Positions 37,177-42,879 of a stretch of DNA of 64,000 nucleotides are shown here, in pieces; the stretch's first letter is position 1, and every line of letters begins with the position of its first letter. Under the pieces are notes generated by a model that did not search any database, was not told the DNA's origin, and saw only the letters and a program-made list of their open reading frames with translations. This DNA comes from Escherichia coli (GTDB taxonomy: Bacteria; Pseudomonadota; Gammaproteobacteria; Enterobacterales; Enterobacteriaceae), in assembly GCF_030384885.1 (NCBI RefSeq), contig NZ_CP128613.1. The stretch is one strand, 5' to 3'. A program made the translations under genes and the position numbers.

Positions 37177-38841
37177 TCAGGCTACCTTTTCGACAGAAAC
37201 GTCGACATCAGGGCGGTTGAGTGTCATCACGGACGCCAGTTTATTCAGCGTATTACCCAGAGTTTGCGGAATGGCGATGGCGGCAACAAAGCGATCCGGG
37301 CGCATCACCACCAGCGAAGCATTATGTTGTGCGAACCAGCTACGCAGGCGACCTTGCGTATCGCCCACGCGCAGCACGCCGGCGTGGTTATCCTGCGCGG
37401 TATGAATTTGCACATCCGGCACCACCTGAATGAAGCGAGTACCCAGCGCGCGCCATTGCTGGATTTGCTCATCGCTCATCCCCCACAGTGGATTGCATCC
37501 CCAGCCAATTACCGCGAAGTTCGCGCCGATCGCGTTATCGAGCAACGTCACGTCGCCGTTTTCCAGCGTAACTTTCGGCTGAATAAACATCTTGCCGACC
37601 GGAGAGTGTTTCGCTTCGCCTTCACGCACCAGCGCACCGGCGTAATATTGCGGCATCGGCTTGAAGCGCATTTCGAGAAAGTAGCGTTTTACTGGCGGCA
37701 GATAATTCAGCAGCCAGGAAACACCGTCACGTAACGTACCCTGCCAGCGTTTCGGCGGAGCCAGTACGTTGCCCGCCGTCACCGACAGATCAATCATCGC
37801 TTTGGCGTGATCGCGACGTTCTTGTTGATAGGTATCGAGCAGCGCATCGCGAGCTTTCCCCTGGATAACCAACGCCAGTTTCCAGGCGAGGTTAAAGGCG
37901 TCGCGCATACCACTGTTATAGCCCTGCCCCTGCCACACCGGCATGATATGTGCGGCATCGCCCGCCAGCAGTACGCGGTCAATACGAAAACGTTGTGCCA
38001 GTCGCGCGTTGTGGGTGTAGACACGCTGGCGAATCAACTCGACGTTGTCCGGATTAGGCAGCACTTTGCTTAACAGCTTGCGCATATTTTGCGGCTCGCG
38101 GAGCTGTTCTTCGGTTTCGCCCGGCATCACCATAAATTCAAAGCGACGTACCGCATGAGGCAGAGCCGCAGAAACATACGGGCGCACCGGATCGCAACAC
38201 AAATAGATATGCGGCGTACTTAACGGATCGTTGGCGATATCCACCACAATCCACTGATTTGGTGCGGTTTTACCTTCAAACGGCACATTCAGGGTGCGCC
38301 GGACAAAACTTGATCCACCGTCACAGGCTACCAGCCACTGGGCTTTGACCGTTTCCCGCTGCCCTTCTGCCGTTTTCAGATACAAGGTCACTTCGTCATC
38401 TTGCTGGCTGAAGGCCTCCAGCTCGCGGGAAAACAGGCAGCGCACATTCGGAAACCGCGACAACCCTTCCAGCATCACCGCATCGACCTGCGGCTGAATA
38501 AAGGCGTTACGACGCGGCCAGCCAAATTCATCGGTCATTGGCTGAATATCAGCAAAACAGCGGCCTTTTGGGGTAAGAAAACGCATCGCATGCCACGGCG
38601 TAGTGTGCGGCAGAACATTATCGACAAGGTCAACCGACTGCATGGTGCGCAGCGCCTCGTCATCAATTCCAATCGCGCGTGGATAGTCGATCAACTTATC
38701 GAGTTTCTCCACCACCAGCACGTCAATGCCCATCTGGCCGAGATAGTTCGCCATCATCAGCCCGACCGGACCGGCACCAGCGATCGCCACCTGAACGCAA
38801 TGGTTAACAGCAGGCTGGATGTCAGGGTGTTGTATTGCCAT
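37177..38841 (-). CDS. mhpA: 3-(3-hydroxyphenyl)propionate hydroxylase (FAD monooxygenase)
   Basis: 554 aa; N-terminal FAD fold [17 protein letters not shown]. Confidence 0.95.
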
Positions 38842-38982
38842 TTCAGTACCTCACGACTCGGACAAAATGCCGTTGCGCGCACAGTTCAACGCAACTTATT
38901 TTGTTAAAAACATGTAAATGATTTTTTATTGTGCGCTCAGTATAGGAAGGGTGTTTTCGGCTACAATCAAAACATGCCTGAG

Positions 38983-38999
38983 TGTGCACCAAGTGCACA
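38983..38999. promoter_or_regulatory. Perfect 17-bp palindrome in the mhpR/mhpA divergent region, candidate MhpR operator
   Basis: TGTGCACCAAGTGCACA lies between the mhpA start (38841) and the mhpR start (39032). Confidence 0.5.
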
Positions 39000-39031
39000 A
39001 CGTTGTTTTAACTATAGAAATGTCAATTAAT

Positions 39032-39865
39032 ATGCAGAAAGATGTGCAGACGGAATACAAAACCGTGCGCGGCTTAACCCGCGGTCTAATGTTATTAAAT
39101 ATGTTAAATAAACTCGATGGCGGTGCCAGCGTCGGGCTGCTGGCGGAGCTCAGCGGCCTGCATCGCACCACTGTGCGGCGACTGCTGGAAACGCTGCAGG
39201 AAGAGGGATATGTCCGGCGCAGTACCTCCGATGACAGTTTTCGTCTGACCATCAAAGTGCGGCAATTAAGCGAAGGATTTCGTGACGAACAATGGATTTC
39301 TGCACTGGCAGCCCCGCTACTGGGCGATCTGTTGCGCGAAGTGGTATGGCCGACAGATGTGTCCACGCTGGATGTTGATGCAATGGTGGTACGCGAAACC
39401 ACCCACCGTTTCAGCCGTTTATCTTTTCACCGGGCAATGGTCGGACGGCGTTTACCGCTCCTGAAAACCGCCTCGGGACTGACCTGGCTGGCCTTTTGCC
39501 CGGAACAAGAACGCAAGGAGTTAATCGAAATGTTAGCCGCCCGCCCCGGTGATGACTATCAACTGGCACGGGAACCGTTAAAGCTGGAAGCCATTCTGGC
39601 GCGCGCACGCAAAGAGGGTTACGGACAGAACTACCGTGGCTGGGATCAGGAAGAGAAGATCGCCTCCATTGCCGTGCCCCTACGCAGTGAACAACGGGTG
39701 ATTGGCTGTCTGAATCTGGTGTATATGGCAAGCGCAATGACCATCGAACAGGCAGCGGAAAAGCATCTTCCGGCGCTACAACGGGTAGCAAAACAGATCG
39801 AAGAAGGGGTTGAATCGCAGGCTATTCTGGTGGCCGGACGGCGAAGCGGCGTGCATTTACGCTAG
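39032..39865 (+). CDS. mhpR: IclR-family activator of the mhp operon
   Basis: ORF 38918-39865; start MQKDVQTEYKTVRGLTRGLMLLNML at 39032; 277 aa. Confidence 0.9.
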   Translation: MQKDVQTEYKTVRGLTRGLMLLNMLNKLDGGASVGLLAELSGLHRTTVRRLLETLQEEGYVRRSTSDDSFRLTIKVRQLSEGFRDEQWISALAAPLLGDLLREVVWPTDVSTLDVDAMVVRETTHRFSRLSFHRAMVGRRLPLLKTASGLTWLAFCPEQERKELIEMLAARPGDDYQLAREPLKLEAILARARKEGYGQNYRGWDQEEKIASIAVPLRSEQRVIGCLNLVYMASAMTIEQAAEKHLPALQRVAKQIEEGVESQAILVAGRRSGVHLR

Positions 39866-39967: not shown

Positions 39968-40756
39968 GTGGAGCAAATCATGAAAATTACTCAAATTCGT
40001 AATGCCACCCAAATTATCCAATACGCTGGCAAAACATTTCTTATTGACCCGTTACTCGCGCCTAAAGGAAGTTATCCGGGTTTTGCCGGAACGGCACGCG
40101 CAGAAATCCGCAATCCAACGGTAGAATTACCGTGTGATTTAACAACGTTACTCAACGTTGACGCCCTAATAGTGACCCATTTGCATGAAGATCACTGGGA
40201 CGAAACAGCCTCCCGCGTCGTCCCCAAAGATAAACAGATTTATGTGCAAAATGAGCAAGATGCTGAATCACTGCATAAACAAGGATTTACGCATCTTACC
40301 GTACTTGCCGACGAGACTAAATTTGGCGATATTACTCTGCATAAAACGACAGGGCAGCACGGCTCCGATCGCACCTATGCAGACCCGGCTATGGCGAAGC
40401 GTTTAGGCGCAGCCTGCGGCGTTGTTTTCCAGCACCCGACAGAGAAAACGCTCTATCTGGCTGGCGATACCCTCTGGCGTGATGACGTCGAGGCTACAAT
40501 GCTAACTTTCCAACCAGAAGTGGTGGTGTTGAATGCCGGATTTGCGCATGTTCTGGGGCATGGCGCGATAATTATGGGAGCTGAAGATATTCTCAAAACA
40601 CATTTTACCCTGCCAGAAGCGCAAATTGTCGCGACACATATGGAGGCCGTAAACCACTGTTTGCTGACGCGTGATGCGCTCAAGGAATACGCCAGAGATA
40701 ATCAAATTATCGAATTTGTGAACGTACCAGAAGATGGTGAAACGTTGACATTCTAA
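39968..40756 (+). CDS. Metallo-beta-lactamase-fold hydrolase, function unknown
   Basis: 262 aa; THLHEDHWDE metal-binding motif (HxHxDH-like); SD GGAG 8 nt upstream; not present in K-12 as I recall it. Confidence 0.75.
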   Translation: MEQIMKITQIRNATQIIQYAGKTFLIDPLLAPKGSYPGFAGTARAEIRNPTVELPCDLTTLLNVDALIVTHLHEDHWDETASRVVPKDKQIYVQNEQDAESLHKQGFTHLTVLADETKFGDITLHKTTGQHGSDRTYADPAMAKRLGAACGVVFQHPTEKTLYLAGDTLWRDDVEATMLTFQPEVVVLNAGFAHVLGHGAIIMGAEDILKTHFTLPEAQIVATHMEAVNHCLLTRDALKEYARDNQIIEFVNVPEDGETLTF

Positions 40757-40775
40757 TTCGGAGATAAAGAGTGTT

Positions 40776-41729
40776 ATGCGCCCGCTAACTGTTGCCATTA
40801 TCGCCGTTGCCGGTTTTAGTCCTTTTCACCTTTCCGTACCGTTTATCGTGTTTAGCGAAAAAATGGCGGAGAAAAAACGCTTTCATGTAATTATCTGCGC
40901 TGAAAAGCCGGGAAATGTGGACTCTGCCGATGGGTTTTCCGTAACCGCCACCCATGACTATACGGCAGTCATCCAGGCGGATATTGTGATAATTCCTTAC
41001 TGGGGAACAATTACACAAAAACCGCCACAAAAACTGCTGGAAGCCTTAACGACCGCACGAGATAACGGGGCACAGATTGTCGGGCTTTGCCTGGGCACGT
41101 TTGTGCTCGGCTATGCAGGTTTACTGAACAATAAGCGTGCTGCCACGCACTGGGAGTTCGAGCGTGAATTTCAGGCACGTTTTCCACAAACACATCTGGA
41201 TATTAACGCGTTGTATGTAGACGATGATGGCATTATTACCTCTGCCGGTACTGCCGCGGCGCTGGATTGCTGTTTGTATATTGTTCGGCAACATTTTGGC
41301 AGCGACTATGCTAACCATATTGCCCGACGGATGGTCGTACCGCCATATCGCACCGGCGGTCAGGCGCAGTTTATAGAGCAACCGGTGCCGAAAAATACCC
41401 ATGATGAACGCATTAACCTCCTGCTGGATTACCTGCGGCAAAACATTGCGCAACAGCATGATCTCGACTCGCTGGCTCAGCGAGTAATGATGAGTCGCCG
41501 CACACTAACCCGTCATTTTATGAAAGCGACCGGTTCGAGTATCGCCGAATGGCTCATCACTGAACGCTTACGCCGTAGCCAGGAACTGTTGGGATCCAGT
41601 CAGTTGCCCGTTGAGCGGATAGCGGCTGAGGTGGGTTTTCTCTCACCTGTGACCTGGCGTCAGCATTTTAAATCTCACTTCGGCGTCAGCCCCGCAGAAT
41701 GGCGCAAAACCTTTCGTGGTATGGCATGA
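40776..41729 (+). CDS. GlxA-type transcriptional regulator (DJ-1/PfpI-like domain plus AraC HTH)
   Basis: 317 aa; N-terminal class I amidotransferase-like fold, C-terminal AraC HTH; the 3' end contains the lacI promoter. Confidence 0.8.
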   Translation: MRPLTVAIIAVAGFSPFHLSVPFIVFSEKMAEKKRFHVIICAEKPGNVDSADGFSVTATHDYTAVIQADIVIIPYWGTITQKPPQKLLEALTTARDNGAQIVGLCLGTFVLGYAGLLNNKRAATHWEFEREFQARFPQTHLDINALYVDDDGIITSAGTAAALDCCLYIVRQHFGSDYANHIARRMVVPPYRTGGQAQFIEQPVPKNTHDERINLLLDYLRQNIAQQHDLDSLAQRVMMSRRTLTRHFMKATGSSIAEWLITERLRRSQELLGSSQLPVERIAAEVGFLSPVTWRQHFKSHFGVSPAEWRKTFRGMA

Positions 41730-42863: not shown

Positions 42864-42879
42864 TGTGAGTCAGCTCACT
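42864..42879. promoter_or_regulatory. CRP (CAP) binding site of the lac promoter
   Basis: TGTGAGTCAGCTCACT (TGTGA-N6-TCACT); one spacer substitution versus K-12. Confidence 0.8.

Follow-up and report, generated by a model that had tools for sequence, protein, structure and literature searches.

The inverted repeat TGTGCACCAAGTGCACA, located at positions 38983-38999 of a 64,000-nucleotide stretch of Escherichia coli DNA (the window), is very probably where the IclR-family regulator MhpR binds in the control region between the divergent genes mhpR and mhpA, and from where the mhpA operon, which serves the degradation of 3-hydroxyphenylpropionate (3HPP), would be activated. In the current work, this reading is based on the match to a published operator, the position of the repeat, its deep conservation, and the fact that a long open reading frame running across it is not conserved. 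The activator role of MhpR, the effect of inducer, and the dependence on CRP are taken from the literature; the exact -10, -35, transcription start and CRP site are those that we infer. Judged by comparison of sequences, the element is this strain's version of the known MhpR site: real, conserved and already known. The word operator is used here for an activator site upstream of the mhpA promoter and not for a repressor operator, MhpR being an activator.

Table 1. Features of the mhpR-mhpA control region in window coordinates
Feature	Position	Strand	Description
mhpA coding sequence	37177..38841	-	554 aa, first gene of the regulated operon; start codon 38839-38841 (CAT on the plus strand)
Predicted Pa transcription start	38932..38933	-	Derived from the position of the -10
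Inferred Pa -10, TATACT	38939..38944	-	16 bp from the -35
Inferred Pa -35, TTGTAG	38961..38966	-	TTG frequencies 1.00, 1.00, 0.91 at a fixed operator distance, 80 species
Conserved A-run (T-run on the Pa strand)	38969..38972		Between the operator and the Pa -35; A frequencies 0.92, 0.65, 0.88, 1.00
Probable MhpR binding site (operator)	38983..38999		TGTGCAC-CAA-GTGCACA; 7-bp inverted arms, 3-nt spacer
Left GTGCAC hexamer (half-site core)	38984..38989		1.8-2.0 bits/position, 80 anchored sequences
Right GTGCAC hexamer (half-site core)	38993..38998		1.7-2.0 bits/position
Conserved TTGTTTTA box	39003..39010	+	mhpR side of the operator; 0.55-1.6 bits/position at a fixed distance, 80 species
Candidate weak CRP site, TGTCA-N6-ATGCA (TGTCAATTAATATGCA)	39021..39036		Centre 39028.5, about -95.5 from the predicted Pa start; tentative
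mhpR coding sequence	39032..39865	+	277 aa, IclR family

The repeat and its counterpart in K-12

The sequence and coordinates of the repeat were confirmed by a sequence check. It lies in the interval 38842-39031, which is exactly the 190-bp gap between the divergent genes mhpA (ATG at 38841, minus strand) and mhpR (ATG at 39032, plus strand). The two 7-nt arms, 3 nt apart, were reported as 100% complementary by a repeat finder. The central CAA is asymmetric and not self-complementary, leaving 14 of the 17 positions symmetric; thus, the "perfect 17-bp palindrome" of the preliminary description was correct in sequence, in coordinates and in its perfect 7-bp arms, and overstated in its wording. 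Because each arm contains the self-complementary GTGCAC, the element can equally be described as a direct repeat of GTGCAC with 9-bp spacing. A longer symmetric palindrome (AAAACA...TGTTTT) was also considered and was rejected, its centre being approximately 1.5-2 bp off the dyad of the operator.

The exact repeat pattern appeared in none of 100 dinucleotide-preserving shuffles, and when up to 2 mismatches were allowed it was matched in 33 of 100. Perfect inverted repeats of any sequence with the 7+3+7 form number 6 in the window, compared with 3.8 +/- 1.9 in mononucleotide shuffles. Since such generic repeats are not exceptional relative to the shuffles, the palindrome by itself proves nothing. 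The significance of the element rests on its position and its conservation, not on its palindromy.

In MG1655, the homologous sequence in an ungapped pairwise alignment (98% identity) is TGTGCACCAGGTGCACC on the mhpR strand, with GGTGCACCTGGTGCACA as its reverse complement. The latter is listed as the MhpR operator or binding motif in Table 1 of PMC8222616, with Torres et al. 2003 named as its source. The window site is identical to this K-12 operator at 15 of 17 bases, with both hexamers and the 3-nt spacing unchanged. Read on the mhpR strand, the window has A for the K-12 G at 38992, within the spacer, and A for the K-12 C at 38999, the outer base. Whereas the K-12 operator has perfect arms of 6 bp, the change at 38999 extends the arms of the window site to 7 bp and gives it the outer pair T...A that is the consensus across species (31 of 69 loci). 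The placement is the same as that of the K-12 operator: in both, the centre is 41 nt away from the start codon of mhpR and 150 nt away from that of mhpA. The repeat had been proposed earlier as a strong candidate for the MhpR operator, to be compared with the published MhpR site. As far as the table of PMC8222616 reaches, this proposal is borne out: the MG1655 counterpart is the reverse complement of the motif listed there, and the operator sequence falls here and not elsewhere.

A stretch of 501 bp identical to that of the window is present in E. coli 2013C-4282, and the mhpA-mhpR control region was found in 4896 of 5426 complete E. coli genomes, mostly with 95-99% identity. The exact 41-bp version around the window site is carried by 7 of 4715 E. 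coli records. This divergent lineage of E. coli keeps an intact MhpR site that is nearer to the cross-species consensus than the site of K-12, which matters little beyond annotation.

Several other observations concern the surroundings of the locus. Among 4900 control-region matches, 10 were located on plasmids and not on chromosomes. Between mhpR and lacI, this lineage carries genes for an MBL-fold metallo-hydrolase and a GlxA-family (AraC-type) regulator (39968-41729); in MG1655, mhpR is followed directly by lacI without these two genes. The CRP site of the lac promoter (42864-42879) is TGTGAGTCAGCTCACT, one spacer substitution away from the TGTGAGTTAGCTCACT of MG1655.

Conservation of the site across species

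One genome per species was scanned with the MhpR protein, and 80 loci with 55-97% amino-acid identity were obtained. The genera represented include Escherichia, Citrobacter, Kluyvera, Edaphovirga, Shimwellia, Pluralibacter, Pseudomonas, Azotobacter, Marinobacterium, Zobellella, Nitrincola, Oceanospirillum, Xanthobacter, and Plasticicumulans, and also Vibrio. Within 450 nt upstream of mhpR, the motif GTGCAC-N3-GTGCAC was present exactly at 69 of the 80 loci, and with one mismatch at the equivalent place at 9 more. At two Vibrio loci (L023 and L032; V. cincinnatiensis and V. furnissii), whose mhpR orthologues have 69-74% identity, no similar site was detected within the 450 nt upstream, the best match having 4 mismatches.

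In the remaining 496 kb of the surveyed loci, only 4 exact copies of the motif were found. Three of these belong to Marinobacterium (L042, 2671-2685; L049, 3801-3815; L060, 3823-3837), where each is found downstream of mhpR and in front of an mhpB-like dioxygenase gene, and these second copies suggest that two MhpR-controlled promoters are present there. The fourth (L081, 3843-3857) immediately follows mhpR, and no mhp gene was identified next to it. The motif also appears where the gene order is altered. It precedes mhpB-like genes in P. sagittaria, P. linyingensis, P. oryzagri, Stutzerimonas stutzeri, and Xanthobacter, and mhpD-F-E in Azotobacter and Marinobacterium.

When the sequences of the 80 species were aligned on the motif, the hexamers carried 1.7-2.0 bits per position, and the spacer and the outer bases were loose. 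As many as 17 different spacers were observed, and the commonest outer pair was T...A. All 9 one-mismatch variants were altered on one side only, 6 of them at the innermost base (GTGCAT or ATGCAC), and none was compensated in the opposite arm. Near-invariant hexamers, a loose spacer and the absence of compensation fit recognition by a sequence-specific protein, and not an RNA stem.

Conservation extends beyond the repeat to the TTGTTTTA box on its mhpR side and to the run of A on its mhpA side, both of which keep a fixed distance from it in the 80 species and neither of which is symmetric about the operator dyad. The A-run may possibly be contacted by the alpha subunit of RNA polymerase or by MhpR. 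The GTGCAC-N3-GTGCAC site and the adjoining promoter geometry are shared by organisms as far apart as enterobacteria, Pseudomonas, Marinobacterium, and an alphaproteobacterium, which is a modest addition to existing knowledge. A site so conserved could aid prediction of the MhpR regulon or the design of a biosensor for 3HPP or phenylpropionate.

The mhpR start and other readings of the repeat

Whether the repeat is coding depends on the translation start of mhpR. In E. coli, a 315-aa open reading frame beginning at the ATG at 38918 runs open through the site, and the number of perfect 7+3+7 repeats is close to the chance expectation; accordingly, the repeat might be read as a chance arrangement of N-terminal codons in an mhpR translated from 38918. 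The species comparison leaves this reading scarcely any probability. In 50 of the 80 species, a stop codon in the frame of the 38-codon extension breaks it, either inside the site or after it; in 8 of these, all Citrobacter, the stop is formed by the spacer TAA. Escherichia sp. E1V33 has ATA in place of the ATG at 38918. An ATG equivalent to 39032 is present at every Escherichia, Citrobacter, and Kluyvera locus, and the equivalent of 39032 is the RefSeq start of mhpR in the identical-sequence strain 2013C-4282 and in MG1655 (a derivative strain).

The protein profiles agree with this start. The NCBIfam profile NF007341 (MhpR-type) scores 345.7 bits against a cutoff of 269 and aligns from about residue 44-45 of the long frame, and HTH_IclR (PF09339, E = 7.8e-14) aligns from residue 53; together with the C-terminal IclR effector domain (PF01614, E = 1.2e-12), the N-terminal HTH_IclR domain assigns MhpR to the IclR family. 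The 277-aa start at 39032 is thus supported, as the preliminary description had preferred, and with translation beginning there the site is non-coding. Both the chance and the coding explanations are excluded by the conservation. A further ATG in the same frame, at 39020, would give 281 aa. Citrobacter has TTG at this place, and in Kluyvera genomosp. 1 a stop codon separates it from the rest of the gene; translation in E. coli may begin at 39020, and the site is non-coding under that start too. No recognisable Shine-Dalgarno sequence for 39020 or 39032 was found in 39013-39031 in enterobacteria, and in Pseudomonas orthologues AAGGA precedes the mhpR start by 6-8 nt.

Two further readings accept a non-coding repeat and give it a different role. 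The outer pentamers TGTGC/GCACA resemble the CRP half-sites TGTGA/TCACA, and the region is known to be controlled by CRP (PMC8753852, PMC12132413). Identification of the palindrome as a CRP site is nevertheless exceedingly unlikely, since the pentamers are 7 bp apart instead of 6, and the CRP core pattern TGTGA-N6-TCACA has no match in 38842-39031 even at 3 or fewer mismatches. Moreover, the conserved unit is GTGCAC, which tracks mhpR as far as Pseudomonas and Xanthobacter, and the table of PMC8222616 gives the sequence as an MhpR site.

The repeat might instead act in RNA, as a 7-bp hairpin that is followed by the U-rich tract ACGUUGUUUU in the mhpR leader and that attenuates transcription or controls mRNA stability. 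In many species, no more than 30-41 nt separate the operator centre from the first codon of mhpR; the operator therefore overlaps the mhpR core promoter or lies in the leader, so that the site may be transcribed. A terminator-like scan flagged 38983-38999 with its T-rich tail, the palindrome is followed by the conserved, T-rich TTGTTTTA box, and a post-transcriptional rise of mhpR mRNA at pH 4.4 is described in PMC11237407. The predicted hairpin is weak, however, at -9 kcal/mol (z = -0.5), and 52 of 200 shuffled sequences fold at least as well. The arms are invariant where a stem should covary, the one-mismatch variants being uncompensated in 9 of 9 cases, and no Rfam match reached threshold. 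An RNA role is therefore quite improbable; it is compatible with a role of the DNA site and would not exclude it.

Promoters, proposed activation and comparison with other systems

Recognition of the repeat by MhpR is consistent with the predicted geometry of the mhpA promoter, Pa. The TTGTAG taken as the -35 has, in its nearly invariant TTG, the conservation typical of such a hexamer; it agrees with the consensus at 3 of 6 positions and went unreported by a consensus scan for this reason. At the place matching the -10, AGTATA or AGTATG (TATACT or CATACT on the mhpA strand) recurs in Escherichia, Citrobacter, Kluyvera, and Pseudomonas. Enterics have 16 bp between -35 and -10 where Pseudomonas has 18 bp, and this difference blurs the ungapped profile at the -10. 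Measured from the predicted start, the operator centre (38991) would lie at about -58/-59, an activator position. A consensus sigma-70 scan of 38700-39200 found no promoter. This blank result is expected for an activator-dependent promoter, though it is not positive evidence, and with no scan match in the region the assignment of Pa is drawn from conservation.

Torres et al. 2003 reportedly placed MhpR at -58, in agreement with the predicted geometry, and CRP at -95.5. In the window, the latter would correspond to 39028.5, which we take to be the centre of TGTCAATTAATATGCA. This CRP candidate matches 6 of 10 core positions and overlaps the mhpR ATG, and the pattern TGTCA-N6-ATG is common to Escherichia, Citrobacter, and some Kluyvera. 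For K-12, MhpR is a 3HPP-dependent activator of Pa that is essential for CRP binding, according to PMC8753852, and in PMC11237407 aromatic inducers are stated to stimulate binding of MhpR to its operator in the mhpABCDFE promoter region. The weak -35 and the weak CRP site fit these accounts of MhpR-dependent Pa and CRP binding.

A possible course of activation may be outlined from these elements. An MhpR dimer, or a dimer of dimers, would read both GTGCAC hexamers, and the inducer (3-hydroxyphenylpropionate or phenylpropionate) would strengthen the binding. Bound approximately 58-59 bp upstream of the mhpA start, just upstream of the weak -35 TTGTAG, MhpR would aid RNA polymerase and let cAMP-CRP occupy its poor neighbouring site, with activation of mhpABCDFE as the presumed outcome. 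A broader proposal, put forward tentatively and considered unlikely, is that the MhpR site forms the core of a larger module, with the TTGTTTTA box and the A-run as extra contacts of an MhpR tetramer, or that, if mhpR is transcribed from a start upstream of the site, the hairpin and U-tract form a leader element behind the acid-induced post-transcriptional rise of mhpR mRNA.

According to PMC11237407, expression from the mhpR promoter is constitutive as regards inducer, and the Reg-Seq preprint PMC12132413, citing Manso 2011, places a CRP site at -38 to -59 of "mhpRp2". The candidates TGTGCGCTCAGTATAG (centre 38937.5), TGTTAAAAACATGTAA (38909.5), and TGTAAATGATTTTTTA (38920.5) were weighed as CRP sites for the mhpR promoter, and no convincing -10 was found for any of them. 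TACAAT (38962-38967) was rejected as the mhpR -10; its most conserved bases are those complementary to TTG, which is a better fit to the mhpA -35. With regard to mhp data in supplements, PredCRP has no entry, Mendoza-Vargas 2009 has only an mhpR primer, and the Reg-Seq preprint has nothing. A conserved stretch specific to enterobacteria, TTGTTAAAAA(C/T)ATGT(A/G)AAT...TTATTGTGCG(C/G)TCAGTATAGG, occupies 38900-38945, where the mhpA leader and the Pa -10 are predicted. Several weak CRP-like half-sites in it could belong to the mhpR promoter.

Among related IclR-family regulators of aromatic catabolism, the operators of PcaU, PobR, PcaR, and HmgR are grouped under the form GTNCG-N5-6-CGNAC in PMC8222616, whereas the MhpR half-site is GTGCAC. 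These sites and that of MhpR are alike in being short palindromes for a winged-helix dimer in the divergent region between a regulator and a catabolic operon, and in several of these IclR-family cases, as for MhpR, the role is that of an activator site. An extra external direct repeat of the half-site is described for PcaU, PobR, and HmgR in the same paper; the MhpR site, in contrast, has no third GTGCAC-like repeat and is flanked by the A-run and TTGTTTTA. With TIGR02431, the profile of PcaR/PcaU/PobR, MhpR reaches 128 bits, which falls short of the cutoff.

A second comparison is offered by MelR at melAB, a promoter co-activated by CRP in which the pathway-specific activator stands between CRP and RNA polymerase. 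MhpR differs from MelR in being of the IclR type and not of the AraC type, and it would be placed near -58, with CRP near -95.5. The two kinds of promoter are alike in having a weak CRP site that is occupied only with the specific activator, as stated for MhpR in PMC8753852.
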